A DNA stretch of 64,000 bases, taken from positions 32,001-96,000 of the IMG/VR virus record IMGVR_UViG_3300032313_000668; one strand, given 5' to 3'. Shown here piece by piece: positions 16,973-62,020 of the stretch. The stretch is from a virus. The notes beneath the pieces are model-generated. The model was not told the DNA's origin. It was given only the letters and a program-made list of their open reading frames with translations, and did no database searches. The stretch's first letter is position 1. The number at the start of each line of letters is the position of its first letter. The position numbers were made by a program, and so were the translations under genes.

Positions 16973-17136
16973 TGTCCCTCCTTGGGCAGTTAAGTAGAAC
17001 GGAAACGTTCTATTCGCTGATTAGTCGAGGCCGAGGGACTCCGAGACGCACTGGGGCGTGGAGGCACTCTACCTGATTAAATAGTACATCCACCTGAAAA
17101 AGGTGATTGTACGATTTTCGTACTAATTCTGGTTCT

Positions 17137-31600: not shown

Positions 31601-31991
31601 CACGAGTTGAACGTGGGTGTGCAACTGGAAGAAGGTCTGTGTGTTCTGGCTTACCGTTTAGGACACGGTTTTGTTGAGCAAGAGTGACGTACTGAGAAAG
31701 TTCTGTAAGAGCGCGGTGCTTGCGAACAGAGAAAGGCTCTGCTTCATTCTTAGCAATCGAGCGGTCAACAATTGTCAATGCTGCACGAGCTGTAACTAAA
31801 CGAGTACCAGTAAATTCGGTGTTGGCTTCTTTAACAAGAGCGAGGGCAGCATCTTTAATCTTTTGTGTCTGCTCTTCAATAGTGCTGAGATTCTTTGCAC
31901 GCTTGATAGGTACGCAGTTAGGCACTTTTTTCCCGTTCTTCATTTTCATTCCGATTTGCTCGTATCCGTCCCAGCAAGGATTCTCAGCCAT
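22629..31991 (-). CDS. giant multidomain head-module protein: SH3/KOW-like repeats, DEDDh 3'-5' exonuclease, helical repeats, C-terminal HipA/PI3-4K-like kinase
   Basis: IVFDFETTG / AQNAKFD / HDGLNDA (Exo I-III); FMFK, AEAEV, NTDRHHVN and IDHG kinase motifs; lies between portal and protease. Confidence 0.85.
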   Translation of the reverse strand: MAENPCWDGYEQIGMKMKNGKKVPNCVPIKRAKNLSTIEEQTQKIKDAALALVKEANTEFTGTRLVTARAALTIVDRSIAKNEAEPFSVRKHRALTELSQYVTLAQQNRVLNGKPEHTDLLPVAHPRSTRAHDMTTASLMQSRARWVTDDPTIKDAAIKTLLASALTAHPASAEYEYSVARLESFPEGQIPQYALLAALGDGNSSAARRARAMRQRRDRKGRFAEMGGGLRALIRRVNGMIQNLNGRAVSQGIEGDTFDMETPDGRLFRVPAGNVEAIKAIIPSQQTKDGYSKGAAKASAKDPVLNEADLIEIEAPEGFRRDDAWSPKKEDQDLYGENVDLGVKYTDDAYDVIKMENNQFAKDQFEMAQQREREGQNVVAQGDGANGELDPNKPVFLVNRRGQEDDRPFAAVQSWAEVQDFIGQDEPRFEKNENPSPDRMGGGDDGGDKPPAKPVAELPEDGASEFPEGTEFIPGNPKASRAELSEYRKSLKDFRKNGGLVPLDPRKNWALLPDGSIVDRDSGEMLRNTERQVFLPDEEPGLMERIRERFAPKGAYEVDRDEYKPEGPINGQESPDFTDDPAELAQKFDQEELQESLKDAVEGTPEDPATGVGRLPFQEGDERVPAEALYNALKEQGVDVDKFLDDLYKFEKKEMADALAEADVAEAPVAKVPTKELPPLIEGMTPEEQRDFIDNGDYKKYLPENQEQDVPEGYVALDNEPFNEAIVDVPADAPEGFSNNPVDIALGYDKEELKGELRRAVEPANNMPGHGILAQETPEGEAYQASVPGEAIRDALQLQGEDTNALLKDIYAEGNDNEPSNQEIVDALEGENVQEEPAEAPQQAPQNAQRPDAAEPKAGLPADIAPQGAEGRAEAAEGVERLGSQEADLAMGEPRREMVAAKNLQPGDIAVRDNEFFVIEEVAAPADLSEGGQKDKGRNRINVKGYYPGHQTQDRDWFAEGKIEVIRGAAAPAKGNAEPLNKPKLEDYVGGRKDMKKIDGEWGAKDPAIQEKYAADLAAHKAAVQAASANFVDPTKREEDGFVDNAAQADALPAAAAGGPPNGPFIVKVKAKDLQIGDISTKDHFRIVDIKAGEGDKIIIVGHYPGQGLQEKQWKPDTRIEVYRGIPEDQAPQLGEGSLHRPAGRGPKGGWFPIEDTALNAEHEAKLAEVKGRWIPPENLPIVSFGDVTGENKLEDNIKLPPKPREPAYPAFMGKFAEWAKEAQGNWAEFKKKLAGQDLIVFDFETTGVDVKDGNEPWQIAAVKMRDGKIVDRINIFMNPGRSLKGTYAGENAKDPDGNPLTDEFFADKPSQAEGLAQFLEWAGANPLAIAQNAKFDDEIMKRKAAELGLEWNPAGMADTMGMAAEIFKDAPDAPDKKGLGVIAEFLGIKNENWHDGLNDAEVTAQAFTKLIDLAASGDFGVAALDADAQKAAYDAKMAALQPRIDEFNKAAADYVAKKALRDGLAGKPVDLAEIQKEIPAALPEGPIDNVGAMDNPEQAPKPQADLVDVQIDSAFPDGKMRIAEPEFANDLEKVDQLFRGEIKANDLRPGDFVKAIKDKEEFFQVVSIRGGEEFGVEEFKRRIVVQNPEGEQKVVFWNQNAFLDEVRRPKNRAELAGEPLPEVERTPEDVNKQAVTVAAGNAVLEITQDGDEFIAKGRILDNEGNEIYVFEGRYLSQAGAEAEGKALLRRAAVEQADAARRNEGKPESKEKSVAVGVEPANVDQLPVVEVVEDLPVGEGQNEITPQLVDAEIVFKSDAKVVDEGEVVAQIVENFPDRKAASEGGRNNIDAMADALAEQIKEQRDGLLLRSDGRGRRNLPPIPEKYRRQVFLRMLAGLYADSNGNPLAIGDKVIHENPAKADKYGEGEVIGKVQGEIGGLQRKGVVYVDYVLVKYPNGDVRKFASRFQRHVDGAVAKQRFDAEPRINWMNQEEMDIALAERRKKPRKGNEAVDAADAEVEEVVGDVKNVADGVVPEAVEGQPVAKPSFVHDIDWFKENVKPQAFAAGDVKVGDFLPTKGDKNIGRVVAIEDLDRAVRIKVEYPNGRQWEYNPIAKGFELPNVYRMDNAEAPAAPAVPAAPAIEEKAPSVEAPQAPAAEAPAVEEVAPEVAPVPEAPAAAAGDPFVDLEDPEAIRAKLGELAAKMPKFRNNRAERNARWARRRIDELNEELGRGPVDRVGSYEINDAIRYASKIVDPALKAQILPELEKLRDNIDAKKAEIRKKRADAIAENLKNPIDGVAIPENVDALNRQGVIDVLKEFDNRLPNRQNYDIDRDLYQGGQYVRNAIDKLERLGEADFDRLDPDYLDSAIKYIRRAGIDADAQNALADKLEALNGVINEKALADRAVRHAKFIQRMNQPLADDAFPANAEELNREKVAGALDAVIALLPTSEERDADDDLYRAADRIRSYRAQLENNDPDTIGDYEIKRAIEQLRRRKDPRQDEIAQKLEDMLKLVEDNKAIFREQRLAAYKKRLAKPFDENLVIGTPAELDKDNLVDIFKALQEKLPQPNEIDADRQVRRAGEYAQKGLDAAERLANGDENALKNFDDTPLQKIIEKVNAYGNDEEKQIAEFAQKALDQLVEKKNLLKGEARDKFLARRNAELPEDIMPGEGKESKDDFLKLVEQIIDRLPKDEDEDADRKPIRALDNLRNFRDNLSSAADPLVADMSNLSEAIRGLNGANDEKYKEFGDKLQEMQDFMVRRVLERPIRPFAGINLEEVDPIALAEDRVAAGENKFQAKEKIKALFADDKVFEDSPFLRPFKDKIQEFFNGDANPMAALDLRERQAVAQKVSELLKSSGKDKETASELVDLAIALHQERDFYQPQRNDLGAIGLRLMTIEPKKFFAAAKKAGPNGDLVIDGQDTGFTVKQVSTGINSGENFFVTDKATGQKFMFKREQTPQAARAEAEVARITAALGIGGRVFSEVHELDPGVVVQTFAGDTLRLTGPATGFVNVENKIGRTEGAAEKATLIDTIRMGILDAVISNTDRHHVNFQFGNIDAAGVGDNGHENAHIIPIDHGFASALNDDKSRNMYDAKEFALRIGRYGRDGGAIVEQMAKKLGAEAYKKLVDMSIQQAIQYLESLEPGQMRPAQLARIIQRLKEIEAIDVNEWRKMTGRD

Positions 31992-42584: not shown

Positions 42585-42614
42585 ATTATTTCATACCTCC
42601 CTGCATTTTGTCAA
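42585..42614 (-). promoter_or_regulatory. early promoter
   Basis: TTGACA-18-AATAAT with TGCAGGGAG. Confidence 0.7.
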
Positions 42615-42837: not shown

Positions 42838-42867
42838 ATAATAACAGAAAGTGCAGGAAGATGTCAA
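42838..42867 (-). promoter_or_regulatory. early promoter with inverted spacer motif
   Basis: TTGACA-18-TATTAT with CTTCCTGCA; GACAC 25 nt upstream. Confidence 0.75.
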
Positions 42868-42924
42868 GTCCATTTAGGAAAGTTATTTGGAAGTGTCGGG
42901 GGGTAGCCCCCAGACATGAACGAA

Positions 42925-49873: not shown

Positions 49874-50326
49874 TTATGCAATCTCGGCTGGGAAGCCAAG
49901 AGCGTCTCTTGTTTGGTTGATGCGATACATCAACTTGTTGGGTGTCTTAGATAGTTTGACATCATCAAGGTCTTTCTTAGATGTCTCAATGAATAGAGTG
50001 TCCTTAGTCAATGTCCAGCCACCATTTTTGATGCCATCGAACAACTGAACTGCGAAACTCATACGAGTCTCTGTGAACTTCTCTTTTGCATCATTTGCGA
50101 GCGCCTCACCATTTAGGTCTGAGACTGCACGCCATGACAAGCCAGAACTGCGCCATTGTTTCTTTGGAGTCAATGGAGTAGTGACCCTGCGATAAAGTGA
50201 TGCAGGAACTTCTTTTCCATCATTGGCGTAGCCATCAGGAGTGATGAGTATTTGCATCATCGCCCCAGGTTTGCGGAACTCCGCATAAAGTGCAATTCCT
50301 TGCACATCTTTCGTTGCATCTAGCAT
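49874..50326 (-). CDS. hypothetical protein
   Basis: RBS GAAAGGA; first gene of the MoxR unit. Confidence 0.7.
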   Translation of the reverse strand: MLDATKDVQGIALYAEFRKPGAMMQILITPDGYANDGKEVPASLYRRVTTPLTPKKQWRSSGLSWRAVSDLNGEALANDAKEKFTETRMSFAVQLFDGIKNGGWTLTKDTLFIETSKKDLDDVKLSKTPNKLMYRINQTRDALGFPAEIA

Positions 50327-50380
50327 CTTGTTTCCTTTCGGGTTATGGGTGTCTGCTAGGACTTATTTAGTTATGTTCTT

Positions 50381-50410
50381 ATCATAGAGAGGAGTGCAGG
50401 AAGATGTCAA
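50381..50410 (-). promoter_or_regulatory. early promoter with inverted spacer motif
   Basis: TTGACA-18-TATGAT with CTTCCTGCA. Confidence 0.75.
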
Positions 50411-50442
50411 GTCCAAACACCCCTCTCTTGATAACAATTTGA

Positions 50443-50898
50443 TTACGAGGTGAAGACCTTTGCTAAATCAGGATACTTAGCAAGGAACTCTTCGTTCTTT
50501 TGCTTGTCCAATTCCATTGTTGAATTAGGAACTAGAACTTCGTAATTCGAGATGTAATCATCGAAGCTAATTTCTGCAAGCACATTGTCTGAGTTGTCGT
50601 TTTCACAAACCAAAACCATTTGCTTTTCAAAATCTGCAATCAAGATGTAGTTGTAATCTGCACCATGTGAAGTGCCACCTACATAAAGACCAAAACCAGT
50701 TTCGCTAGTCCATTGGTCTCCAACTAACTGCGAAACCATAATGCGTGTTGCATAAGAGTCATCTGACCAGCGTGGTCGTGCTGCCCCTAATGCCTCAGCA
50801 AACCAGCGATTTTGTTCTTCGCCAGACCAATGCTGATACAAAAAGATTGTTGGTGTTGCAGACTTTGCTCTAAAACCTGCTACTGCTCTATCTCCCAT
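50443..50898 (-). CDS. conserved phage hypothetical protein
   Basis: MGDRA...LYQHW.G...RW.D.SYATRI. Confidence 0.75.
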   Translation of the reverse strand: MGDRAVAGFRAKSATPTIFLYQHWSGEEQNRWFAEALGAARPRWSDDSYATRIMVSQLVGDQWTSETGFGLYVGGTSHGADYNYILIADFEKQMVLVCENDNSDNVLAEISFDDYISNYEVLVPNSTMELDKQKNEEFLAKYPDLAKVFTS

Positions 50899-50944
50899 GA
50901 TGTGTCCTTATCGTCGTTATCCCTGCCTGTGTGGCATTGAGATA

Positions 50945-50974
50945 AGTATTGCATCATCTCCCTGCACTTGTCAA
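50945..50974 (-). promoter_or_regulatory. early promoter
   Basis: TTGACA-18-AATACT with TGCAGGGAG; GACAC 26 nt upstream. Confidence 0.7.
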
Positions 50975-51091
50975 GTCCATTTGAAAAAATCTTTTTCGGC
51001 GTGTCGCGGAAATGTTAGTGAGCCAGTTTTATCACGACATGGCTCAGGTCGGTGTTCAGGAGGAAACGACGAAGAAACCTCCCGAAGTTTT

Positions 51092-51361
51092 TTACTTCTC
51101 GAACTCTGTCAGGTTTACGCCAAGACTGTCAAGTCGAGCACGTAGTGCTTCTTCCGAAGCTCCAGGTTCGTAAGACTCTGTGAGAACTCTTGCTACTTCA
51201 GGTCGAGCCCAGTCTGATGCACCTTCAATGATTGCCCAGTCAGTTTCGTCCCAATGGGTGGTCTCCATAATGGTTAGACCAGATGCGTTGCCGTAGCTGC
51301 CGTCTTCAGCAAAGTAATGCAAAGAGCGAACAGCTTCTTCTGTGTTTTTTACCTCGGTCAT
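51092..51361 (-). CDS. hypothetical protein
   Basis: YFAEDGSYG.A motif. Confidence 0.7.
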   Translation of the reverse strand: MTEVKNTEEAVRSLHYFAEDGSYGNASGLTIMETTHWDETDWAIIEGASDWARPEVARVLTESYEPGASEEALRARLDSLGVNLTEFEK

Positions 51362-51452
51362 TTGAATCTCCTTCCGTGTCTAGTGTATCTGTTTTTTACC
51401 TGCGCTCGCCATAAGAAAGGGGGCTCTCGCCCCCTCCCTCACGCCGTAAGTT

Positions 51453-52157
51453 TTACTCTTGCCCGACAAGCATCTCAGAGATTTCTTCTATCTCCGATAC
51501 TGCTTTCTCGGTTGCCTTCTTGTTATTAGGGCAATCGTCATACCAATCTTCTTCATCCCAGCCCTGAGCACAAGCACATCCGTCCTCGTTGTCTCGGCTT
51601 ACATAGTCTGCGTGGCTTTGTGGAATGTCCCACTCGTCGCTTACCGATAACTCGCCGTCCGTGCCCTCGAACTCCACGCCCCAGCCTTGTTCCTCTTCGC
51701 AGTGGAACTTGAAGGTAAGGGTCGGGAACTGTTCAACCATTGCTCGGTATGCTCCCTCCGCAGGAGACCAAGCCGTGCTGAAACTGTATTGAAGTTCAGT
51801 AGGACTGTCCGTGCCGAGGTCGGGGTCGGAAGCATCCCACTTCGTGCCCCAGTTGCGAATGTTCCAGTCATACCAGCCGTCGGACTTGAACTGCATAGAG
51901 AGAGCCATCTTCTCTTCCATAGATAGTTCGTCGTATCCCTCGGGTTTGTAATCGCTCGCCCCAAAATACAGTTGCTTGTTTTCTGGCTCTATGAAGTTCC
52001 AGAACTGTATGACGCCTTCGTGTGTTCCTTCTACTTGTTGATTTGTTTTGTAATCTTCGTAGTAGGTGGTGTAAGGCTTTGATGCAAGTTCCTTGAACTC
52101 CGCAATCGCTTTTTCATCACCAGTTATGGTGAGGTTGTTATAGACCCAATTTGGCAT
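51453..52157 (-). CDS. DUF1281/YubB-like ferredoxin-fold protein
   Basis: MPNW..N, WYDWN..NWGTKWD and FSTAWSP. Confidence 0.85.
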   Translation of the reverse strand: MPNWVYNNLTITGDEKAIAEFKELASKPYTTYYEDYKTNQQVEGTHEGVIQFWNFIEPENKQLYFGASDYKPEGYDELSMEEKMALSMQFKSDGWYDWNIRNWGTKWDASDPDLGTDSPTELQYSFSTAWSPAEGAYRAMVEQFPTLTFKFHCEEEQGWGVEFEGTDGELSVSDEWDIPQSHADYVSRDNEDGCACAQGWDEEDWYDDCPNNKKATEKAVSEIEEISEMLVGQE

Positions 52158-52210
52158 TTTATTTCCTTTCGTCGTTTTGGTTAGTAAGGGAGGAAGCCCC
52201 TACGAGTTCT

Positions 52211-52239
52211 ATCATAAAGGCTTCCTCATCTGTTGTCAA
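52211..52239 (-). promoter_or_regulatory. early promoter inside a GAGGAAGCC inverted repeat
   Basis: TTGACA-17-TATGAT. Confidence 0.75.
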
Positions 52240-52242
52240 GTA

Positions 52243-52398
52243 TTACGCCTCGAAGTCCCAGCGAGCGCCGACTTCATAATCCTTGAAGTCATCCGCAATC
52301 CAGTCGTCAAGTTGTTTGATGGCATCCATACCATCCTCCGCCTCGACCTCAACTTCATAATTTTTAGTGAGTGTTGCTCTTACAGTTATCTTCGTCAT
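52243..52398 (-). CDS. small hypothetical protein (not in track)
   Basis: MTKITVRATLTKNYEVEVEAED...; RBS AAGGAG. Confidence 0.65.
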   Translation of the reverse strand: MTKITVRATLTKNYEVEVEAEDGMDAIKQLDDWIADDFKDYEVGARWDFEA

Positions 52399-52400
52399 TT

Positions 52401-52601
52401 TTACTCCTTTGCCAATGCAACTGTGTTTAGTAATTCAAGTGCTGGAAGATACTCTGTTTCGTAATCTTCTTCACGCCACTCTTGTTTTTCTTCGTCATAG
52501 AGTGAGCCTTCGTGAAACTTTGCTGTGAAGGTGTCGTCGTCAATGTGGACTGACTTGTTGTCAATGTCCACTGCAATCACAAAATGAACTGTGCGTGCCA
52601 T
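52401..52601 (-). CDS. hypothetical protein
   Basis: Conserved leader; resembles ORF 37182 (HFVIAVD / HLVVAYN). Confidence 0.65.
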   Translation of the reverse strand: MARTVHFVIAVDIDNKSVHIDDDTFTAKFHEGSLYDEEKQEWREEDYETEYLPALELLNTVALAKE

Positions 52602-52636
52602 CTTGTTTCCTTTCGTCGTTTGTTGATGGTGAACTT

Positions 52637-52665
52637 ATTATTACACCTTCCTGCACACTTGTCAA
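52637..52665 (-). promoter_or_regulatory. early promoter
   Basis: TTGACA-17-AATAAT with TGCAGGAAGG; GACAC 26 nt upstream. Confidence 0.75.
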
Positions 52666-52776
52666 GTTTTGTTGGGAAAAAGTTTTTCGGCGTGTCGTTC
52701 AGTTGACGAGGGCCCTGGAATTAAAGAAGGAAAGTTATTGTGAAGTTAGTGCAGGAAACTTGCTGACATCAACGAA

Positions 52777-52950
52777 CTACTCCTCTGGAGTTTGTTCCTC
52801 AATCGCTGTGCGATTTTTTACCTCACGAGTTCGCATCCGCTTTGTGCGTCGGTCTTCAAATACCTGGGACTTCTGATTCTGAACATAGTTTCCAGGCACG
52901 CCTTTAGTTATCCGCTTGATGCGCTCGCGTTCCCGCTTCTTCTCGTCCAT
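52777..52950 (-). CDS. small basic protein (not in track)
   Basis: MDEKKRERERIKR...FEDRRTKRMRTR; apparently leaderless. Confidence 0.55.
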   Translation of the reverse strand: MDEKKRERERIKRITKGVPGNYVQNQKSQVFEDRRTKRMRTREVKNRTAIEEQTPEE

Positions 52951-53036
52951 CTTTAAATTTTACCCCGTCAAAGAAAAACGACCCGCCAAGTCCCGTCGCT
53001 GCGGGTGCTTATTGGCGAGCCGTTAAATTTTTTTAC

Positions 53037-53162
53037 TTACTCTGAATCCCTGGCCGTATCAGCTTTCTCGAGCATTGCATCCGTGAACTCTTCTGCGGTT
53101 GGTTCCCAGTCTTCGGGCTTATCGCGAGCCGTGCTCTCAAGCCACTCTACGTATCCGCGCAT
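53037..53162 (-). CDS. small acidic protein (not in track)
   Basis: TAATG coupling; RBS GGAGG. Confidence 0.5.
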   Translation of the reverse strand: MRGYVEWLESTARDKPEDWEPTAEEFTDAMLEKADTARDSE

Positions 53163-53359
53163 TACGCCACCTCCTCTAGAAACTCTACCTTTACCGCATC
53201 TCCCAGTTCGTTCATTTTTACCAAGCCGTAGATGTCTTCTATAAAAGTCTCACGGGCATAGTCCGCAAACTCTTTGTCCGTCATGGTTGTATCCATGCCG
53301 TCTTCTAGAAACGCTTTGTCGAATTCAAAAGTGATGTGCGCTTTTACATACCTGCCCAT
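53162..53359 (-). CDS. hypothetical protein
   Basis: TAATG coupling. Confidence 0.65.
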   Translation of the reverse strand: MGRYVKAHITFEFDKAFLEDGMDTTMTDKEFADYARETFIEDIYGLVKMNELGDAVKVEFLEEVA

Positions 53360-53538
53360 TACTTCACCAACTCAAGCCGTTGACCCAACCCGAGTCCTAG
53401 CTTGCCCGTGCCGTTAAGTTCAAAACAACTTTGGCACATGTAGGCCCAAGGGCCCATTACAGTGGCGGCATCATAGCGAGCCGTTTCACCGCAATTGAAA
53501 TCGCACTGTGGCATTACTGCTACGCGAGCCGTTTCCAT
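53359..53538 (-). CDS. small zinc-finger protein (not in track)
   Basis: CDF.C...YDA.T..GPWA.MC..CF...GLG.GQ. Confidence 0.75.
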   Translation of the reverse strand: METARVAVMPQCDFNCGETARYDAATVMGPWAYMCQSCFELNGTGKLGLGLGQRLELVK

Positions 53539-53984
53539 TATGCGCTCACCTCTTCTGGTGTCATTGGGTTCTCAGCGGTCAGGCCCGTTGCGTTGCGGTA
53601 GAGGCGTGCACCGTCAGACCACTCTGACCAGTATCCGTCCGAGCCGATATCCACTGCATCACCGTAAACATCTTTGAGGTGGATAAGGCAAGCCGTAACT
53701 ACTGGGTCATACGATTTGCGTGCCGTCTTGCAGAAATTGAATCCGCTAGCGTCCACGGCCCAATAAAAGGTTTCGTGAGAATCCGCGCCGTATCCATTGA
53801 ATGAAACTAATGAATCGGAAATCTCCCACCCACCTAGCTTCTCGCCCATGCCGTCAGCGATTTGAATGTTGTCGTGTTGTGTTGCGTATTCAATAATCGT
53901 GCGAGCGCCGCGAGCAAACATTTCGAATCGCAGTGCATCATCGCGAGTAGTGCCTACCTTTGAGAAATAGTGTGTGTATCCCAC
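53538..53984 (-). CDS. conserved phage hypothetical protein
   Basis: MGYTHY...HETF...FCKTARK.YD..V. Confidence 0.8.
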   Translation of the reverse strand: MGYTHYFSKVGTTRDDALRFEMFARGARTIIEYATQHDNIQIADGMGEKLGGWEISDSLVSFNGYGADSHETFYWAVDASGFNFCKTARKSYDPVVTACLIHLKDVYGDAVDIGSDGYWSEWSDGARLYRNATGLTAENPMTPEEVSA

Positions 53985-54052
53985 TTGGGTGTCTCCTTCA
54001 TCGTTTTTGTTATTAGGGGGTTCCCTAATATTTTCTATTATAGAGTGTTGAC

Positions 54053-54286
54053 TTAATACTTGTCAAGTGCTTTCTGCATTTTTATCAAAGATTTATCAAA
54101 ATCTCTTTGAACATTTCTATACTTCCTTTGATACTTCCTGCCCTCAATTGAAGGTGGGATGTAGGTGCTTCTTCTTATCTGTCGTCTATAGCTTGGCTTA
54201 AAGTGGATTACTGCCCAAACAAATAAAGTCAGACCACTACCAATTAACATTCCAGCAATTAATAGAATGAGTTCTCTTGTTTCCAT
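54053..54286 (-). CDS. small membrane protein
   Basis: N-terminal TM segment and basic tail. Confidence 0.6.
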   Translation of the reverse strand: METRELILLIAGMLIGSGLTLFVWAVIHFKPSYRRQIRRSTYIPPSIEGRKYQRKYRNVQRDFDKSLIKMQKALDKY

Positions 54287-54289
54287 TTT

Positions 54290-54538
54290 TTATCCTTTTG
54301 TCATTTCTGCTGTTTCTATAAACCCAGCGCCGTTTAGTTCAGGGTCGCGGGCAGGTATTAAGACGTGACCATTATCAAAAATTAAAACAATCGCGCCTTC
54401 TGAATCGTATTCGTCCCAGCCGAAAGCTTCAAGTTCTGATTCTGTCATAGGGCGTACCGAAACTAACTTCGCTCCAATAGCGCCTTTGCACTGGTCCGCA
54501 TAGAACTGTTTCACTTCGTCTTTTGTTTTTATGTTCAT
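54290..54538 (-). CDS. hypothetical protein
   Basis: VRPMT..E...GW...RDPE.NG.G; own TTGACA/TATAAT promoter. Confidence 0.7.
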   Translation of the reverse strand: MNIKTKDEVKQFYADQCKGAIGAKLVSVRPMTESELEAFGWDEYDSEGAIVLIFDNGHVLIPARDPELNGAGFIETAEMTKG

Positions 54539-54580
54539 CTTTCCTCCTAAATCTATTATAGAACAACAGATTTACATTTG

Positions 54581-54895
54581 TCAACTATTTGATAAAACTT
54601 CTTTTGTGATGAGAATAAAGGCAACCACTGACATTATTAAACCAACAACCCAATAAAAACTATCTTGAGCAATGAAGATTCCCAGGGATGTAAATGTGCT
54701 GGTTATGCCTAGGGCCCAACCCCACTCAACACCAAGACGCTTCCATAGGAGAAGCCACATCGATAGTGGCCATATAAGAATCTGCAGCATTGCCCAAACG
54801 GGCAGCAAGCCGCTAGGCGTGAAGTCGTCATCGTATCCGTTGTTAGCGTCAGCTCGAGCCGCGGCTACGTTCCAAAGTATAAATAGTTCAATCAT
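54581..54895 (-). CDS. multi-TM membrane protein
   Basis: Three hydrophobic segments; leaderless promoter at 54902-54930. Confidence 0.65.
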   Translation of the reverse strand: MIELFILWNVAAARADANNGYDDDFTPSGLLPVWAMLQILIWPLSMWLLLWKRLGVEWGWALGITSTFTSLGIFIAQDSFYWVVGLIMSVVAFILITKEVLSNS

Positions 54896-54914
54896 ATGTT
54901 TATCATAGAGCGAA

Positions 54915-55560
54915 CGGGTACCGTTGTCAACCTGGTTAAATTTAAGTTACCAGCTGATAGCTCGCCGTTTTAAAAAGTTATTTGTTTCTCGGGCGGGCCG
55001 CGGGTTAGTTTCTCGGCCGCTCGGTTGAGAAACCTAATCCTACCCACCGTGTCAAGTCCTGTCAAGCAGCAAACCGTTTCATAGGTTGTTCAACTTGGGC
55101 GAGCCGCTGTGGGCTACATCCAAACAACTCACCGTCAACCAGGCAGCTGTACCTTCAGAGCTCGCCGTTAAAGTTATTCGGTTCTGCTTACCTGGCCGCC
55201 AACTTCAGAACCCATTCTGAACTCTCACCGTTAATACTTGGCGCAGCTATACCAGGCCGCTTTAAATTTTTTACCTCCCTGATTTTTTACCGTCAGCAGC
55301 TGAGCTGCGGCCGCCAGGTCAACATCGCAATAACTCTCCGTTATACGCGGGCCGCCTGGTTTTTCCGCCCGTCCGTTCCAGATGGTGAGCTCGCCGCCAG
55401 GTAAAAGTTATTGGGATGTTTGGTAACCAAGGTACCCCGAGCTCGCCGTCCCATACAAACTTAGTTCTAAGGTTGTACGGCAAGTTCTATGATGGGAACC
55501 TTAAGCTCCAGTCCGCTGCCGTTAAAGTTATTTGAATGTTCCGTCAGCAATGTCGGTGGT
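54915..55560. repeat. non-coding block of dispersed short repeats
   Basis: AGCTCGCCG x4, AAGTTATT x4, GGCCGC, CCWGG and CAGCTG repeated; CCG roughly every 30 nt. Confidence 0.7.
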
Positions 55561-55578
55561 TACCGTTATGCTGGATGT

Positions 55579-55749
55579 ATGAATATCTATGCTCATCCCG
55601 TTGGGGCAGACCCGTTCCACCTACACGAAGTCCTTATTGCGCTCGCCGCTTTTGGAACAACGGGTATCGCTTTCCTGTGGTGGGGATTCAAAGACCAGCT
55701 CAAGCGGGCCGCTGCCTGGTTTAGGAAGTTGTTTCGTTCTCGCCGTTAG
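55579..55749 (+). CDS. small membrane protein
   Basis: MNIYAHPVG...TM...basic tail; TATGCT just upstream. Confidence 0.5.
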   Translation: MNIYAHPVGADPFHLHEVLIALAAFGTTGIAFLWWGFKDQLKRAAAWFRKLFRSRR

Positions 55750-55855
55750 CTGCAGCTGCGATGTCAATGTCCGTTGAGCATTTAGGGCATCGGTCATGCA
55801 GGCCGAGTTCATAAACCTCGCCGCACCAGAAACAATCCTTTAATACTTTTCCCAT
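55721..55855 (-). CDS. small zinc-ribbon protein (not in track)
   Basis: CFWCGE...CPKC. Confidence 0.5.
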   Translation of the reverse strand: MGKVLKDCFWCGEVYELGLHDRCPKCSTDIDIAAAANGENETTS

Positions 55856-55976
55856 TAACTTGGTAACTCATCCATTCTGTCTACCCAGTCCGTTGGGTCT
55901 TCCTCTTGGTCACACTTGCCGTTTGATTTTGGCACTTGACAAACCGTTAATTACTAGTTAGCATTGGAAATGCTTA

Positions 55977-56162
55977 CTAGTTATTAACTTGCTCCGTTGC
56001 CTCTAGTTGAAACCTCTTCAGGCCGTTAAGGAGATTAGCCGCCTCATTTGCCCTCGCCGTTACGCGGATGTGTTCATCGCGAGTTCGGCACTCAATAATG
56101 TCTGATTGAAGGCGGGCCGCAAGCTGCGCCGCCTCTTCGATAAGTTGTTCTACCGTCATCAC
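55977..56162 (-). CDS. helical-hairpin hypothetical protein
   Basis: Coupled to the upstream gene. Confidence 0.6.
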   Translation of the reverse strand: MMTVEQLIEEAAQLAARLQSDIIECRTRDEHIRVTARANEAANLLNGLKRFQLEATEQVNN

Positions 56163-57157
56163 AGCTCGTCGAGCTCCTCTGCTGTTATGGTCTCTGACTC
56201 GACGGTTGTCTCATCCGTATTTTTTACCTCGGCGCTCGCCGTGGTTTCCTGAGGTAAAATTTCTATATCTTCGACTTCAGCATCGATAACATCAGCATCA
56301 TTAACATCTACCGTTCCTCCCAGGAGGATGGCGGTATTGGCGGCTCCTTGCCGTAGGCGGTTGAGGCGGTCAAGCACAATCTCTGCTGGGGAGCGACCGT
56401 CAGTCACCTGGACGTCCACCCCAATATCCACGCCGCCTCGCACGCCTGCGCGGTCAAGGATTTCGGCTGCGGCTTTAAGGCGCACGGGTTCGGAGACAGC
56501 CGTCTCCATAAGTTCTTCCATCACATCTACCGCATAAGGTGCGGATTGCATTAGCTTCTTGCGAGCACGTTCGACATCCTCGCCAGGCTTCCGTTGACTG
56601 CGGAGGTGGACGCGACACAAGCCGTCATCTTTCAGACGCCCGCTAGACCAGAGCATGCAGCGCAAGCCGTCGCCCTTAATGATTCGACAGCGGTGGGGCA
56701 GAGCGGCAGGCGCTCGCTTTGCTGATTTCGGGCCGCCGTCTGCCTGTTCCTTCTGCCAAGTCTTAGTAGCACCGACAACCCAGGGAGGTGTAATACGACA
56801 CGCCGATTCATCAACTATCAGGTCCAGGCCCGTTAAGTAGTCGGAGTTATTGTCAAGTGGGTTTGAGAGCAGCGGCTTCTTTTCCGCCAGGGAAAGGACA
56901 CGCCGTTCTTTCATTTGTTCTTGAGAGCGGGCAGCAATAAGCCCCGTTGGTTGACCCGTCTGTGAATAGACAGGGTCCCAGTTCATTAACGCGCCGCGAA
57001 GTATTTGACGGTTCTCGTAGGTGTCCTCGACAACGCCGCGTTCCATCTCAACCATGCCGATTGCCGTCAGGTCAGGACGGAAATCTAAGGGAGTATCAAC
57101 TGCGGGTTCAAGGTCTTCCTCTTCCTTCGGTTCCTCGAAGGGAAGTAGGTCAGACAT
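56159..57157 (-). CDS. probable terminase small subunit
   Basis: C...G.RC...G.C..H Zn knuckle, VRLKAAAEILDRAG helix and acidic VIDAEV tail. Confidence 0.65.
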   Translation of the reverse strand: MSDLLPFEEPKEEEDLEPAVDTPLDFRPDLTAIGMVEMERGVVEDTYENRQILRGALMNWDPVYSQTGQPTGLIAARSQEQMKERRVLSLAEKKPLLSNPLDNNSDYLTGLDLIVDESACRITPPWVVGATKTWQKEQADGGPKSAKRAPAALPHRCRIIKGDGLRCMLWSSGRLKDDGLCRVHLRSQRKPGEDVERARKKLMQSAPYAVDVMEELMETAVSEPVRLKAAAEILDRAGVRGGVDIGVDVQVTDGRSPAEIVLDRLNRLRQGAANTAILLGGTVDVNDADVIDAEVEDIEILPQETTASAEVKNTDETTVESETITAEELDEL

Positions 57158-57167
57158 TTTTTACTTC

Positions 57168-57362
57168 TTAAGCTTCACGTGCAGATGCGAGGTGGTCGTT
57201 CAATTCTTGCCGCTTTGTTTGGAGGACAGCGCTGATAGCTTCCTTCTCAACCTTTGTGCGGTATTCCTGGTTTGAGAGCATATCAACGTAGCTCTGAATC
57301 TCAGCGCGAAGTTCTAGTTCGCGGTCTGCGTGGGCTCTTGCCTCTTCGATGCTTAGTGCCAT
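57168..57362 (-). CDS. helical hypothetical protein
   Basis: RBS AGGAG. Confidence 0.6.
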   Translation of the reverse strand: MALSIEEARAHADRELELRAEIQSYVDMLSNQEYRTKVEKEAISAVLQTKRQELNDHLASAREA

Positions 57363-57433
57363 CTTTTTCTCCTATGTCGGTGAGGTAAAAAATATGGAGA
57401 GCGGGGCCCGCGAAGGCCCCACTTCCCAATAAC

Positions 57434-57739
57434 TTATTTCTTTGTTGTGGTCTTCTTGGCAGCTGGCTTCTTCGCGCTCGCGGCAGCTGTGGATAACTTC
57501 TTGCCAACCTCAGCGGCAGCTACCTCTGCGACACGCCCGAAAGCAGGGTCTTTAGAGTTGAGCCAACGAAGGGCGGTTGGGATTAGGGAGGCCCATAGGG
57601 CGTTGGCTACAAGGAGCCACTCGGCACCTGTGAAGTCAAGGGGTGAAGCTGTTGCTGACATCTCCATAACAATGAAGATGGCTCCGACTACCTGACCAAG
57701 CAGGTTGCGGAGGTAGGACTCAATTGCGAGTTTGTTCAT
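57434..57739 (-). CDS. holin-like membrane protein
   Basis: Two TM segments; LRWLN.KDPAFG; K/A-rich tail. Confidence 0.7.
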   Translation of the reverse strand: MNKLAIESYLRNLLGQVVGAIFIVMEMSATASPLDFTGAEWLLVANALWASLIPTALRWLNSKDPAFGRVAEVAAAEVGKKLSTAAASAKKPAAKKTTTKK

Positions 57740-57944
57740 TTGGTTTTCGTCCTTCTTTCGAGGGCTAGATAATTTTTACCTAGTACCACTAGAGTAAGGC
57801 ATCTTCGGACGAATTTTTTGGAAAAGTTGCGTGATATTTACCCCCTTTTATAAACAACCAATTTTGAAATGGTCAATTTCCCTGTGGAAATAAGGGGTTT
57901 TGGATTTCGGACGGGACATCAAATTGATGAACAAAAAAGTGTTT

Positions 57945-58166
57945 CTAGACTTCCGCTTTTCGCCATTCAAAGTAGCTTTTGATATAGACAAAGGCATAAG
58001 CGATTGCCATCACAATAAATCCATATTGCTGGGTGACGAGGGCATAAACGACCCAGATGACTTCATTAGCTAGTAAGACCAGCCATCCCCAAACGGTTTT
58101 CTTTCCGACAAAGTACATTCCAGATACGCCAAGGATAGCCAACAGCCAAGACCAATATTCAGTCAT
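57945..58166 (-). CDS. PnuC-like small membrane protein
   Basis: WSW.L...G...K..WGW...W..YA..T.QYGF. Confidence 0.65.
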   Translation of the reverse strand: MTEYWSWLLAILGVSGMYFVGKKTVWGWLVLLANEVIWVVYALVTQQYGFIVMAIAYAFVYIKSYFEWRKAEV

Positions 58167-58232
58167 GTTGACTCCTTTTTCAAATTGTGGGTAGTTCCCA
58201 AGGCTATCAGGAATCGTTATCAGATGTGATAA

Positions 58233-58487
58233 CTATTTGTCGTTGGCATCCATCTTAAACCAGTTGTGGTCCATCGCAGGATGGTCGACTTTGATGGTGT
58301 CTTCAAAGACATACTCAGTCAAGATGTCATGGACTCCCCAAAAGGTAGGGCTAGTTCCTTCACAGAATGTTTCACCCTTGACTACCAGTTCACCCTCCCA
58401 ATGTGAGAACTCACCGTCATAGTGAACCTGTCTGATATTGAACGATACATCTCCATCAAAATGAAGTTTAGGTAAGTTGTTGTCCAT
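58233..58487 (-). CDS. hypothetical protein
   Basis: Operon context. Confidence 0.55.
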   Translation of the reverse strand: MDNNLPKLHFDGDVSFNIRQVHYDGEFSHWEGELVVKGETFCEGTSPTFWGVHDILTEYVFEDTIKVDHPAMDHNWFKMDANDK

Positions 58488-58857
58488 TATTTTTCTCTAG
58501 CCTTTTTATATTGCAGTCTTCACAGAGGGTGACAATCCAGTAGGTGTCATTACGAATCTCTCCGTATTTCCCACAGCTTTCGCAAGTTGAAGCTGAGCAA
58601 CTTTCTGCCCATTGTTCGATTGCTTCCATGATGTCGTACTCGATAGTTTCGTACTTTTTAGTTGTTGCGAAGTAGTAGCGCAAGGTACCGAACTTTTCCT
58701 TGATTTGGTGGATTTCATAGTCAGGGTCAATAAAGGCAAACATCTCGTCAGCCTTCAGAATTATGTCTTTCCACCCATCAGGTGCGATACATCCATACCA
58801 GCCAGAAGTCTTTACTCGCTTGGCATTAAGTTCTTGTTGCCAGCTTTGCTCTTCCAT
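58468..58857 (-). CDS. conserved phage zinc-finger protein
   Basis: GW...QIKEKFGTLRYY...CESCG...LCEDC. Confidence 0.8.
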   Translation of the reverse strand: MEEQSWQQELNAKRVKTSGWYGCIAPDGWKDIILKADEMFAFIDPDYEIHQIKEKFGTLRYYFATTKKYETIEYDIMEAIEQWAESCSASTCESCGKYGEIRNDTYWIVTLCEDCNIKRLEKNNGQQLT

Positions 58858-59036
58858 CTCAGTCCTTCTTGTTTTCCCATTTGGTCAGGTGATAGCCACC
58901 ATGGACTTCACATTTGTACCAAGTCAGCTTGACACCCTGTTCTTGCTGGGTCGTCAAAATAACTGAAAGTAGAGTCCCATGGTTTTTATAAATCATCTTG
59001 TTCCCATGAGAGTTGCATCGATTGACTAACTCTCCC

Positions 59037-59360
59037 TTAAGGTTGTATGGCACTTCCCTGCTCCTGTTCGTCAGGTGTATCTGGCTTCTCCAAGATAGGA
59101 AGTTGTGAGTAGGCAGTCTTCTCTTGAACGACATCTACTGCTCGACGAAGACCTAGTGAGTATAGAGAGTTGTCTCCCGAGTCCATAACTAGTTCCCACT
59201 CTTTTATCATATCTTCTAAGGTATTCACTTTGGATACAATCCAGGAGTCAACAGAAGTCTCAATAACTTCGTGAACTTTTATCAGAGCTTCTGGTGTCAT
59301 CTCACCTCGTTGGGCAAGTTGTCTTAGTTGTTCGACGATGCTGTTTGTTAGCTGACTCAT
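59037..59360 (-). CDS. hypothetical protein
   Basis: TAATG coupling. Confidence 0.65.
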   Translation of the reverse strand: MSQLTNSIVEQLRQLAQRGEMTPEALIKVHEVIETSVDSWIVSKVNTLEDMIKEWELVMDSGDNSLYSLGLRRAVDVVQEKTAYSQLPILEKPDTPDEQEQGSAIQP

Positions 59361-59824
59361 TAGACTTCCTCCATACAGGTGTCACATAAAAGAGCATCTA
59401 GTCCAGTTGCTTCATACGCAACAGTCTTTGAGGCACCGTTGATTGGTACAGGCATAATCCGTCCCTCAGTTGTATTACAACGGTCACACTTAATCTGGTC
59501 CAACCATCTGGCTTCTTTGCCAACTTGAGCCAATGCGCTAATCCCACGGACTAGGGCATGTTCAACTCCAGGTCCAGATGTCTTACGTAAGAACAACCTA
59601 GTGTCCTCAACTTCAATTACTGGTCTGATGTTCTTGCATGGGCAGTACATACGAGATGGCTGGCAAGTGATAATCCCAGCAGGAGTTGTGTGTTTATTAA
59701 TAGCATGACCGCAGAGACAAACCCTTGGGTCACGGGGTTTACGGTCTTTTAGTTTTTCATCTGCTTCATGTGCTTCTTCAGTAGTAATACCTAAAGCTGC
59801 TAAAGCTTCTTTGGCACTCGTCAT
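59360..59824 (-). CDS. Cys-rich zinc-binding protein
   Basis: CLCGH...H...C...CPC and CDRC...CDTC. Confidence 0.7.
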   Translation of the reverse strand: MTSAKEALAALGITTEEAHEADEKLKDRKPRDPRVCLCGHAINKHTTPAGIITCQPSRMYCPCKNIRPVIEVEDTRLFLRKTSGPGVEHALVRGISALAQVGKEARWLDQIKCDRCNTTEGRIMPVPINGASKTVAYEATGLDALLCDTCMEEV

Positions 59825-60069
59825 TTTCTTCCCTCATCTTCCTCAAAGCGTTTTACCAAATCTCCGAACTTAATCTCAGTTGAGATTTTGTCCTCCATCT
59901 GGTTTAAGAATTCATCCACAAACTTTCGCTTGCGTTGTATATCAATCCATCTCAGAAGCGATACCGCTCCTAGTACAGACATGAAGTTCAGAACTGCTAA
60001 CAGTCCAAACTGAATCCAAGTCATTTGTAACTCCGTCTCTTTGTCTTTGAAGTTTCCTTCATAGAGCAT
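59821..60069 (-). CDS. small membrane protein (start may be 60024)
   Basis: One TM segment. Confidence 0.6.
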   Translation of the reverse strand: MLYEGNFKDKETELQMTWIQFGLLAVLNFMSVLGAVSLLRWIDIQRKRKFVDEFLNQMEDKISTEIKFGDLVKRFEEDEGRK

Positions 60070-60714
60070 CCTAGACCCGTTGTGTCAAACTTGTCAACTA
60101 AAAAATCAAACACTTAAACACCTACTTCCTAAAGGGCTGGTTCCCCTGCTTTACTATACACTATACACTATAACACTAGATTTTAAATATCTTAATTCTC
60201 AACCTTTCTTTCAGTACGTGTAAGGAAAAAAATTCCTGAGTGACTGGAAATTAAGTTAAGACTTAACATATTAAAGCATAGTTGTATAGTTGCACTAACT
60301 CCTTTTTTTCTTGAAAGACATTCAAAAAAGTATAGTATCTCAACCTTCCTGCAAAATCATCCAAAAAAGATACTAACAATTTTTTCCTACCTTTTATCCT
60401 ACAGCTTCTCTCTTTTTTGCAGGAAGGTCTCGTCCGATGACGGAACTAGAGTCGACCTATTTTAAAGTCTCAACCATACTCAACCTAACTCAAGGAAAGG
60501 GAGATACTAACTAAAAGTGCAGGAAGATAAATTCAAAACTTAAGTACAGGAGTCCAGAAGTTATTCGGAAGTCATTTATTTTTTTAGTTTTTCAGTTTTT
60601 AGTTTTTTAGTTTTTCAGTCTAGAAAGACCAATCCCCAAAAGTAAACCGAAGGGTGATAGCTCCAACGCACAGCCCAAACCACAGAAACCAGACCCACTT
60701 AGGAAAACTAACCA
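60070..60714. other. AT-rich non-coding region, candidate origin or genome-end element
   Basis: No ORF; CTATACA and TTTTT(C)AG tandem repeats; three TGCAGGAAG sites. Confidence 0.45.
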
Positions 60715-61374
60715 TTAGACCGTTAGTACCATTTCCTTCATATGCTCAACCCTCACCAAAGGATGTAGCCAAATAGAAAACCCTGCTTCTTTAGCCCCAA
60801 CGCACCAAGAGTAGTCCTCACCTAGGTCCACCTTGAAAGGAGCAGTCTCAATCGATATCTGCCTTACCCGAAACCAAGGGCGTTCTATCTTTTCAAAAAC
60901 CCCAGCCTTTACAGCTAAGAAGCCAAAACCAACCCCATCTACCTCAAAGGGCTCACCCTCTACAATGAAGTTTCGGCTATTAAGGGAGACAGGGTTTCCA
61001 GCCTCATTTAGCTTCATAGCCCCAAATCTGCCAGTTCTATCTACGGCAACCATTCCAGACACAATGTCTAAATCTGTATCAAGGAGAGTCTGCAAGGCTT
61101 CCACAGTCCAACTAACGTCAGAGTCAATCCAGACAATTCGGTCATAAGTAAACTTTCCTGCACCAAAGGCAACCGCTTCCCAATCTGCCCCATAGGAGTC
61201 CGTCGCAGTATTTTCCCTAGCACTCGGGACAAAAGAAGAGAACTGGTTGACAAAGTGGTACGAGACCCCAAGAGAGTTTAGATAAGTTGTACTTATCAAA
61301 AGGGACTTGACATACTCCTTATGCATGGAGTGTCCAGGGGTAGCAATCACTACGTTGTAATGAGGAACAGTCAT
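60715..61374 (-). CDS. glycosyltransferase (GT-A-like)
   Basis: IATP, WIDSD, GFGF, GEDYSWC and V.H.K. Confidence 0.82.
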   Translation of the reverse strand: MTVPHYNVVIATPGHSMHKEYVKSLLISTTYLNSLGVSYHFVNQFSSFVPSARENTATDSYGADWEAVAFGAGKFTYDRIVWIDSDVSWTVEALQTLLDTDLDIVSGMVAVDRTGRFGAMKLNEAGNPVSLNSRNFIVEGEPFEVDGVGFGFLAVKAGVFEKIERPWFRVRQISIETAPFKVDLGEDYSWCVGAKEAGFSIWLHPLVRVEHMKEMVLTV

Positions 61375-61420
61375 AACCTCACTCTACTGCAAAAACACCC
61401 AAATCTGCTATGGTGTCGAA

Positions 61421-62020
61421 ATGACATGGAACCCTGATTATTTAATCGAGTCAGCAATGCGTGCAGGTGTCAACTTTGAAGTTGAGTCGGATTGGCTCAA
61501 GGTTGACCCATACGGCAAAAAGTTTCAACCCGTAGGTGTTGTTTGGCACCACACAGGTTGTCCCACTTTTGCCAGAGGCAATATGCCTTCTCTTAACTAT
61601 TGCAAGAACCCTGGCATCTATGCAGGTCAAGCAAGAGCATGTCACCTTGTCGTAGGACGTAATGGAAAGATTCAAATCATTGCAGGCAGGGGTGCATACC
61701 ACGCAGGAACTGGTGGACCTATGACTGTAAACAAGAAGAGAATTCCAGAAGACTTAGGAAACTACTATTTAATCGGAATAGAGTTTGAAGCGCACTCATC
61801 TACCAAGATTAATAAGCGCAACATCTCAACACCTAAGACTGGCTTAAACCCCGCACAAATTACCGCCGCCTCCAAGTGGAGCGCAGAACTTTTTGACATG
61901 CTCGGTTGGCCTACTGAATCTGCTATCCGTCATTCAGACTGGGCACCAGGAAGAAAGACTGATGTGGGTATTTCTCTAGAAGTTATTCGTAGTCGTATTG
62001 ACAGCTTCAGAAAGTCATAG
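61421..62020 (+). CDS. N-acetylmuramoyl-L-alanine amidase (Amidase_2)
   Basis: VWHHT, AYHAG, IGIE and H..WAPGRK.D. Confidence 0.88.
   Translation: MTWNPDYLIESAMRAGVNFEVESDWLKVDPYGKKFQPVGVVWHHTGCPTFARGNMPSLNYCKNPGIYAGQARACHLVVGRNGKIQIIAGRGAYHAGTGGPMTVNKKRIPEDLGNYYLIGIEFEAHSSTKINKRNISTPKTGLNPAQITAASKWSAELFDMLGWPTESAIRHSDWAPGRKTDVGISLEVIRSRIDSFRKS

Follow-up and report, generated by a model that had tools for sequence, protein, structure and literature searches.

A repeat-rich non-coding block near the probable genome end of a large lake actinophage: a candidate transcription-control boundary inside a strand-specific RCGG domain

What is the role of a repeat-filled block that encodes no protein and lies beside a probable small-terminase gene? 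The block examined here is found in a 64,000-nucleotide (nt) stretch of viral DNA, referred to below as the window, which comprises bases 32001-96000 of the 118,251-bp IMG/VR record IMGVR_UViG_3300032313_000668 (G000; linear, about 90% complete according to CheckV, 45.5% GC). PHROG matches in the window to portal, major head, tape measure and tail proteins indicate a large siphovirus. Its major capsid protein shares 75% identity with that of the metagenome-assembled Actinomycetia phage DSL-LC01 and 46-57% identity with those of large Microbacterium, Arthrobacter and Gordonia phages, and the public sequencing runs that contain the stretch are lake-water metagenomes. Genes occupy the minus strand from about 60 kb to 0.1 kb of the window, including all those flanking the block, and the locus is therefore described in the minus orientation. 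The block is read here, tentatively, as a non-coding boundary that controls transcription near the end of the genome of a large actinophage, one with probable direct terminal repeats; this reading is plausible though somewhat short of probable. It is also the densest part of a domain of about 6 kb in which the word RCGG is enriched about fourfold and on the sense strand only, and this domain is judged to be more important than the block itself.

The block is real and is conserved within a subclade of eight phages. A sequence-only reading had placed it at 54915-55560 and described it as non-coding; the description stands, and the limits are corrected to 54896-55720, with a conserved open reading frame (ORF) of 44 amino acids (aa) next to it. 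ORFs within 54915-55560 are only 31-54 aa long, and none is kept in relatives, in which the homologous stretch contains indels that are not multiples of three. The motif coordinates given in that reading are all right, and comparison with shuffled sequences places the counts far above chance. The motif AGCTCGCCG occurs at 54959, 55159, 55388 and 55440, which are four of the five matches on both strands of the window (0.35 expected from shuffles, with none of 100 shuffles reaching five). The 8-mer AAGTTATT is found at 54975, 55171, 55405 and 55525, and its excess (20 matches on both strands of the window versus 2.7 expected) extends well beyond the block. Two of the 17 window matches to TTTTTTACC are in the block, at 55267 and 55283; this sequence, when reverse-complemented, gives the ribosome-binding-site context that is usual ahead of minus-strand genes (GGTAAAAA, then the start codon). 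When short sites in 54896-55976 were counted against all plus-strand matches in the window, only GGCCGC (7 of 10) and CTCGCCG (7 of 13) proved to be truly concentrated, the corresponding counts being 4 of 28 for CAGCTG, 3 of 15 for GAGCTC, 2 of 4 for GGTACC and 8 of 94 for CCWGG. The dismissal of the block as a clustered regularly interspaced short palindromic repeat (CRISPR) array was sound, as such arrays have regular repeats of 23-50 nt and evenly long spacers, and here the repeat core is 16-19 nt and the spacings are 120-234 nt. No tandem array was found in the block, the sole array reported in 50000-58000 being at 56277-56308, and no tRNA was found.

Alignment of 22 copies from the blocks of the eight phages defines an asymmetric element of 16-19 nt, A-S-W-W-S-C-N-AATAACTTT, which is often followed by TAC. 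All 22 copies are co-oriented with the genes, and conservation reaches beyond the 8-mer by which copies were found, with A at -7 in 21 of the 22 and T at +8 in 20. An RCGGC box, which reads AACGGCGAGCT in the window and AGCGGCC in relatives, comes within 1-12 nt after most copies. From phage to phage the intervening sequences are unrelated, with no conservation past the closest relative. The block in the window has four such copies and a weaker inverted one (Table 1), the latter pairing with copy 2 as a 15-nt inverted repeat that is 93% complementary with 70 nt between its arms. A position weight matrix (PWM) scan of the 118-kb genome gave 21 hits of at least 11 bits versus 1-6 in five shuffles. 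Strong hits beyond the block are located at gene junctions, namely at 42876, where a hairpin, the element and, 8 nt on, a promoter follow one another, at 52728, about 60 nt ahead of a promoter, and at 60554, where a run of phased A-tracts precedes the element. These A-tracts (CTAAAAA-like units, approximately 60573-60620 in the minus orientation) occupy a divergent intergenic region where the gene strands switch, and may mark a bend in the DNA at a promoter or origin. Stretches of 45 nt immediately ahead of element copies fold slightly better than control windows (-9.9 versus -7.8 kcal/mol, p 0.002). A scan of the collection for the bipartite element returned 49 stretches. Two matches occurred in only one of them, which was already known (L015, from the contig of L002); the remaining 48, with one match each, are taken as chance.

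Seventeen loci were compared, consisting of the window, two IMG/VR relatives and those 14 of 32 metagenome relatives that have sufficient flanking sequence. Two promoter-like sites, P(A) and P(B), are associated with the block (Table 1). P(A) is followed directly by a hairpin, the stem of which differs in L003 and still pairs, and the order P(A), hairpin, copy 4, P(B) is kept in L002, as is that of P(A), hairpin and copy 4 in L003. The position of P(B) suggests a leaderless or near-leaderless start of the ORF at 54581-54895. In a consensus scan of 50000-61500, no minus-strand site was found between 58183 and P(A) (55065), and P(A) is by that scan the first minus-strand sigma-70-type site inward of the predicted genome end described below. 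The genes past the block have a near-perfect promoter each (54584 and 54066). The block is read as a boundary or control region because the scan found no sigma-70-type promoter for the left-end genes and the other side is promoter-rich.

As a boundary, the block would separate the left-end genes (the terminase-like, 61-aa and zinc-ribbon ORFs) from a run of small promoter-bearing genes. The left-end genes would be reached by a sigma-70-type promoter only through read-through after the genome ends are joined, and they are likened in this respect to the small-terminase gene of phage lambda, which transcripts reach only by crossing the joined ends. On DNA entering from that end, P(A) and P(B) would then be the first sigma-70-type promoters met by host RNA polymerase. 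The element copies upstream (four co-oriented plus the weaker inverted one) may be sites for one sequence-specific factor, or termination or insulation signals, and would keep the two transcription units apart and adjust the activity of P(A) and P(B). The observations behind this scheme are the anatomy of the block, the conservation of its parts, the occurrence of the element in intergenic places elsewhere and where the block lies with respect to gene 1; the position of the genome end, the direction of entry, the timing of expression and the binder of the element are inferred.

Several observations weigh against a control boundary. The promoter scan is a plain consensus match which returned 19 sites versus 13.3 expected in shuffles, weaker promoters may exist upstream of the terminase-like gene, and the genome end of this phage is placed by inference. 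Some strong hits to the element are antisense to genes (45717 and 57421) and others are inside ORFs. The copies in the block are irregularly spaced (120, 234 and 196 nt), the 8-mer AAGTTATT is in excess on both strands of the whole window, the distance from hairpin to element is not fixed, and the conserved AATAAC core is unlike what an intrinsic terminator requires. No candidate protein that binds the element was identified. An intrinsic terminator tail, an extracytoplasmic function (ECF)-type promoter, a boxA-like site and a promoter for a single-subunit RNA polymerase were each considered for the element by eye and rejected, as the spacings to the hairpin and the RCGGC box vary. No phage RNA polymerase was found among the PHROG and other protein matches.

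A class of sigma-70-like promoters was also noted in the window, in which a 12-13-nt word, AAGTGCAGGAAG(G), lies in either orientation in the spacer between the hexamers. It is found at 37117, 37879 and 38404 on the plus strand, at 42596, 50957 and 52646 on the minus strand, and inverted at 42849, 50392 and 60515. There are 11 matches with at most two mismatches versus 1-3 in shuffles, nine of them in promoter-like sites, and the word looks like the operator of one regulator. P(A) and P(B) do not have it.

Downstream of P(A), within about 60 nt, come a conserved hairpin and a U-run. These might instead mean that the block gives rise to one or several non-coding RNAs, be it a short transcript started at P(A) or a sponge RNA rich in motifs. 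Folding z-scores of -2.3 and -3.4 and the high density of RCGG are in keeping with this. However, both strands fold alike, as DNA inverted repeats would, the sequence between element copies is unconserved past the closest relative, and the hairpin is backed by three sequences only. A search of Rfam 15 gave no match at the gathering score in the whole window and none at an expect (E) value ≤ 1 in 54700-56200. What survives of the structured RNA put forward in the sequence-only reading is the modestly better folding of both strands than of shuffles and a hairpin kept in three phages; an RNA product is improbable. The repeated 16-19-nt sites, short AT-rich patches and nearby promoters could likewise be viewed as an iteron-type replication origin, which that reading had also proposed. 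Such an origin would have tandem, helically phased iterons beside an AT-rich unwinding element and an initiator gene, and the idea found no support. The copies, at spacings of 120-234 nt, do not keep to the helical phase, genes for an initiator or for replication are absent nearby (the polymerase and helicase genes being some 55-65 kb off), the cumulative GC skew does not turn at the block, and there are relatives that lack the block. An origin here is scarcely credible.

Returning to the control boundary, comparison of the loci shows what can replace the block. The window, L002, L003, L060, L062, L064, L069 and L073 have a non-coding gap, 0.3-1.2 kb long, in which AATAACTT occurs 1-5 times. 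An endolysin-sized ORF (231-276 aa), with no copy of the element, stands in its place in 6 of the 17 loci (L070, L079, L080, L084, L085 and L089), and L071, L076 and L077 show neither architecture cleanly. An annotated endolysin gene is at the place of the block in DSL-LC01 and in phages Big4, Cece, Pumpernickel and A3Wally; in DSL-LC01 and Big4 the gene order is terminase-like gene, small ORF(s), endolysin gene. The block was considered as a decayed endolysin gene and this was rejected, tblastn with the DSL-LC01 endolysin giving no match in the window at E ≤ 1.

A functionless block, made of what is left of gene cassettes since deleted (their former promoters, terminators and ribosome-binding sites), would account for the orphan ribosome-binding-site-like GGAGGTAAAAAAT at 55262-55275, which has no start codon, for the gain and loss of modules between close relatives (two modules of about 200 nt in the window are missing from L002) and for the hypervariability of the region. 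Yet a gap with the same element is kept in eight phages whose neighbouring protein is only 59-81% identical, the element is conserved and its spacers are not, and the endolysin of DSL-LC01 leaves no tblastn trace in the window. Mere debris is very improbable.

Whether the block could serve in DNA packaging depends on where the genome ends. A tblastn search with the terminase-like protein found homologues in ten phage records, DSL-LC01 and nine that represent eight cultured Microbacterium or Arthrobacter phages. DSL-LC01 is a metagenome assembly and hence uninformative on physical ends. In the eight cultured phages the match starts 79-228 nt from base 1 and is present at two places per record, and in all five cultured relatives that were opened the homologue is gene 1, with its start at nt 19-63. 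The first 16,000 bases of Big4 recur exactly from base 174,695, which corresponds to a direct terminal repeat of 17,669 bp. By homology with these phages, the left physical end of the lake phage is predicted to lie just upstream of the terminase-like operon, perhaps near 57402, and the block would then be some 1.7-2.5 kb inside the predicted end and not at it. Contigs assembled from four public runs yielded no molecule ends. Mean depths of contigs in three runs were about twice as high for 41-57.3 kb as for 58-62 kb (17 versus 8, 13 versus 7 and 10.5 versus 4.6); this step near 57.3-57.9 kb may reflect a collapsed long repeat, although these are per-contig means and a mixture of strains could produce them too. 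Depth at 54-57 kb equals that at 41-52 kb, with no step at the block (again per-contig means). A 377-nt stretch at 58472-58850 is skipped, with one other letter instead, in contigs of runs X2, X6 and X9 and is present in the source run; it is a natural deletion variant in genes upstream of the predicted end.

The gene near this predicted end is probably small-terminase-like, as suggested by signals that are weak and consistent with one another. The probable terS of the sequence-only reading is the ORF at 56159-57157 (minus strand), which is 599 bp from 55560, in agreement with the distance of about 600 bp given there. It has no Pfam hit at E ≤ 10. A profile built from 3 and then 17 homologues matched the solved small terminase 7joq_I of the PDB over residues ~199-271 (E 0.0032, then 1.4e-4), and the 17-sequence profile matched a second one, 6w7t_I, over the same residues (E 0.023). 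The small-terminase family phrog_2538 is weakly matched by 14 of the 17 members (best E 3e-4), and the Cece homologue carries the annotation of terminase small subunit. The structure model has low confidence (mean pLDDT 56.9); with it Foldseek found no match at E ≤ 0.001 and VIA-align found generic helical hairpins only (Z ≤ 5.4). Two further features of the protein differ from the classical small-terminase helix-turn-helix, an N-terminal alpha/beta domain at residues 30-95 that is confidently modelled (pLDDT 85-90), and residues 155-185, in which Cys157, Cys167, Cys181 and His184 are invariant. Matches of the N-terminal domain to RNA recognition motif (RRM)-like folds (E 1-4, probability ≤ 0.44) were not usable.

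With such a gene next to it, the block could be a pac-like array that the small-terminase-like protein recognises, and might form a loop with an element copy next to the cut site. It has direct repeats and one inverted copy of the element, and a further hit of 20.4 bits at 57421 on the plus strand abuts the hairpin at the predicted genome end. That hit, however, overlaps the stop codon and the lysine-rich C-terminal tail of a gene and is kept only in the closest relative, the element is also found at distant intergenic sites, and relatives with terminase-like proteins that are 53-62% identical have neither the block nor the element there. The block is moreover downstream of the gene and ~1.7-2.5 kb from the predicted end. 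A pac or cos site would be expected at the cut site or no more than a few hundred bp away, and the end is 18-62 nt upstream of gene 1 in the five cultured relatives; it would also be expected to be conserved together with the small terminase, and 6 of 17 loci have no block. The repeated sites of lambda cosB (R sites) and of SPP1 pacL and pacR resemble the block in their mixed orientation and in lying beside the small-terminase gene; those arrays are within about 200 bp of the cut site and indispensable, whereas the block is much farther away and is dispensable in relatives. Because the block can be replaced by an endolysin gene and is at that distance from the predicted end, a packaging or cut site is unlikely, and so is a terminase array. 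From the earlier proposal of a packaging-initiation or terminal-repeat boundary, the context of a terminase-like gene 1 in a long repeat is retained, but the block itself would lie inside the predicted end.

A further feature of the locus is compositional. The plus-strand word CCGY, which is RCGG in the sense strand, occurs 116 times (19.8 per kb) in 51291-57157, which takes in a domain of about 6 kb that begins at the terminase-like gene (Table 1), and 29 times (35.2 per kb) in the block, compared with 233 times (4.6 per kb) in 1-50900 and 9 times (3.2 per kb) in 57158-60000. The opposite orientation of the word is not enriched (6.3 versus 5.1 per kb), and the enrichment is seen nowhere else in the genome. 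Relative to other minus-strand genes, ACGG is up 5.3-fold and GCGG 3.2-fold in the sense strand, with other CG contexts about unchanged. Two cassettes inside the domain, 52158-52960 and 54000-54895, are sparse (about 6 per kb) and look like later insertions; these cassettes have near-consensus promoters of their own. The spacing of the word has no 10.5-nt or 3-nt peak, just a broad excess at 27-37 nt. True reverse-strand genes, by which a word tied to transcription could be told from one tied to the DNA strand, were looked for inside such domains, and only spurious antisense ORFs were found.

In the coding parts of the domain, the word is enforced through synonymous choices that depend on the next codon. 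Threonine before a codon starting with G is encoded by ACG in 22 of 38 cases in the domain and in 14 of 325 elsewhere (p 4.5e-16); before other codons the difference is not significant (3/45 versus 22/582). Similarly, codons for Asn, Asp, Tyr and His end in C before Gly in 19 of 21 cases in the domain and 78 of 208 elsewhere (p 2.3e-6), and equally often in both before other codons (57% versus 58%, not significant). The same test on 12 uncultured relatives, pooled and with crude ORF calls, gave 144/292 versus 81/428 for threonine (p 1e-17) and 137/159 versus 101/217 for the C-ending codons (p 7e-16); of the two controls, one was not significant (p 0.37) and the other was nearly equal (62% versus 59%, p 0.04). 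As the synonymous choice depends on context, the word is concluded to be under selection at the nucleotide level in this aquatic lineage. Of the 17 loci, 11 show a step in ACGG of at least threefold precisely where the terminase-like gene starts. In four others (L069, L073, L076 and L085) the step is weaker or displaced, and it is invisible in L070 and L071, which have 57-58% GC. In relatives of the endolysin type the domain spans the terminase-like and endolysin genes. The domain was also considered as a general property of terminal repeats, and this was rejected, since the repeat genes of Big4 (60% GC), the one cultured relative tested, have no codon choice favouring ACGG and the Big4 repeat has only about 1.9-fold more GCGG. 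The features of the locus are collected in Table 1.

Table 1. Features of the block and its surroundings, in window coordinates
Feature	Position	Strand	Remarks
Promoter-like site P(B): TTGACA, 17 nt, TATGAT	54902-54930	-	Few bases before ATG at 54895
ORF-free repeat block	54896-55720	-	Contains 54915-55560 of the sequence-only reading; highest density of the strand-specific CCGY/RCGG word
Element copy 4, between P(A) and P(B)	54971-54989	-	PWM 19.0 bits; position kept in L002 and L003
Hairpin/palindrome directly downstream of P(A)	55008-55033	-	Inverted repeat; kept in window, L002 and L003
Promoter-like site P(A): TTGACA, 17 nt, TAGGAT	55037-55065	-	Consensus scan; kept in L002 and L003
Element copy 3	55167-55185	-	PWM 23.6 bits
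Weaker inverted element copy	55322-55340	+	PWM 14.0 bits
Element copy 2, best match in the genome	55401-55419	-	PWM 27.4 bits
Element copy 1, then RCGGC box	55521-55539	-	PWM 23.7 bits
Zinc-ribbon ORF, 44 aa, CxxC...CxxC	55721-55855	-	Between block and 61-aa ORF; kept in all three aligned phages; Pfam DZR, E 8.5e-4, under the family cut-off
61-aa ORF	55977-56162	-	Conserved with DSL-LC01, 58% over 38 residues
Probable small-terminase-like protein, 332 aa	56159-57157	-	Profile matches; counterpart is the first gene in cultured relatives
64-aa ORF, upstream neighbour of terminase-like gene	57168-57362	-	Frame kept in six loci (window, L002, L060, L062, L064, L069), by eye
Predicted left end: GC-rich palindromic hairpin (57403-57420), then GCTCTCC (minus orientation)	57396-57420	-	Weak 6-7-nt likeness to ends of Big4 and A3Wally
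RCGG-enriched domain	51291-57064	-	CCGY on plus strand equals RCGG in sense strand

One possible, though doubtful, view takes the block for the unconstrained core of a novel type of genome-end domain, in which RCGG (often RCGGC) occurs at 20-35 per kb on one strand over the first 3-6 kb from gene 1 and would be read by a machine that travels in one direction on DNA or RNA. Candidate readers would include a host helicase-nuclease that enters at the end, for which the word might act as a Chi-like attenuator in Actinobacteria, the machinery of DNA entry or end joining, and a phage protein that binds RNA or single-stranded DNA, such as the terminase-like protein itself. Chi is a short strand-specific word whose orientation is read by a machine travelling from a DNA end; RCGG is likewise short and polar, but differs in its density of 20-35 per kb and its confinement to about 6 kb. 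No Chi is known to us for Actinobacteria, and we know of no Chi-like sequence, entry signal or packaging signal for phages of freshwater Actinobacteria, an abundant group. The literature searched contained no report of an actinobacterial Chi sequence, nor of a strand-specific word kept by codon context in the terminal region of a phage.

The density peak at the block, in a domain that starts at gene 1, also bears on the possibility that the block is a cis-acting terminal DNA signal resembling those of phage T5, which would act with the RCGG domain in DNA entry, end protection or end joining. In a preprint on T5, the left terminal repeat is described as containing three untranslated repeat regions (629 bp, 188 bp and 1.2 kb) whose function is debated, one of which has been proposed as an injection stop signal (bioRxiv 10.1101/866236). 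Non-coding sequence rich in repeats is present in the Big4 repeat as well, the inner boundary of which lies within a non-coding stretch of 686 nt (record 17026-17711; L092:1026-1711) in which five G-runs are spaced 12-18 nt apart and several further repeats, direct as well as inverted, are found. On the other hand, many relatives lack the block, nothing points to two-step DNA entry in this lineage, and the equal depths at 54-57 kb and 41-52 kb suggest, weakly, that no repeat boundary falls in the block. Such a terminal signal is accordingly regarded as unlikely.

The closest described counterpart of the block is the set of untranslated repeat regions of T5. Like the block, those regions, as the preprint cited above presents them, sit in the terminal portion of a large siphovirus genome, surrounded by small genes of early type, and are conserved where the flanking ORFs vary; the T5 genome has long direct terminal repeats, as that of the lake phage probably does. 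The block is similarly non-coding, dense in direct and inverted repeats and conserved, in one subclade of eight phages only. There is no sequence likeness between the two. The T5 regions are, by the same account, near-universal in T5-like phages, whereas many relatives of the lake phage have no block, and a terminal repeat in the lake phage itself is a prediction.

Other systems offer partial parallels to a control boundary. At the left end of T7, an early cluster of strong host-type promoters is the first met inward of the entering end and comes after arrays of short repeats, an arrangement that P(A) and P(B) resemble; here, however, the distance from the end is about 2.3 kb and not a few hundred bp, three genes intervene, and the phage family and host phylum differ. 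The stoperators of cluster A mycobacteriophages are asymmetric sites scattered in intergenic regions and mostly co-oriented with transcription. They are comparable with the element as asymmetric intergenic sites of 13-19 nt in an actinophage, but they have no sequence likeness to it, no repressor or lysogeny module was seen in the lake phage, and four copies of the element are clustered in one block.

Some observations elsewhere in the genome bear on the phage as a whole. The large-terminase gene was not found by tblastn with DSL-LC01 and Big4 proteins or by a search of the whole record with three Pfam families; homologues of its neighbours in Big4 (gp65 and gp70) are present, with the syntenic place at about 35.4-40.6 kb of the window, and the gene may sit in the missing ~10% of the genome or be too diverged for detection. 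A protein of 3120 aa is encoded within the portal and head gene cluster (22629-31991, minus strand; the DSL-LC01 counterpart has 3289 aa). Its sole recognised domain is an RNase T/DnaQ-like exonuclease at residues ~1240-1408, and it may be a packaged or ejected protein. GATC and CCGG are wholly absent from the record (310 and 127 expected, respectively, under a Markov model), which points to strong restriction avoidance. Both are likewise at zero in L002, L069 and L073, and are retained by other relatives.

Long terminal repeats of large virulent phages, among them T5, SPO1 and the present actinophages, carry host-takeover genes together with puzzling untranslated repeat regions. The block, with its defined promoters, 22 copies of an element in eight phages and natural knock-outs in the form of endolysin-bearing relatives, is a comparable region that lends itself to dissection across relatives. 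The codon choice that maintains RCGG is direct evidence of selection on an as yet unnamed signal at the level of DNA or RNA beside a probable genome end. If the word controls a host nuclease or the entry of DNA, it would provide a handle on early infection in hosts that are uncultured.

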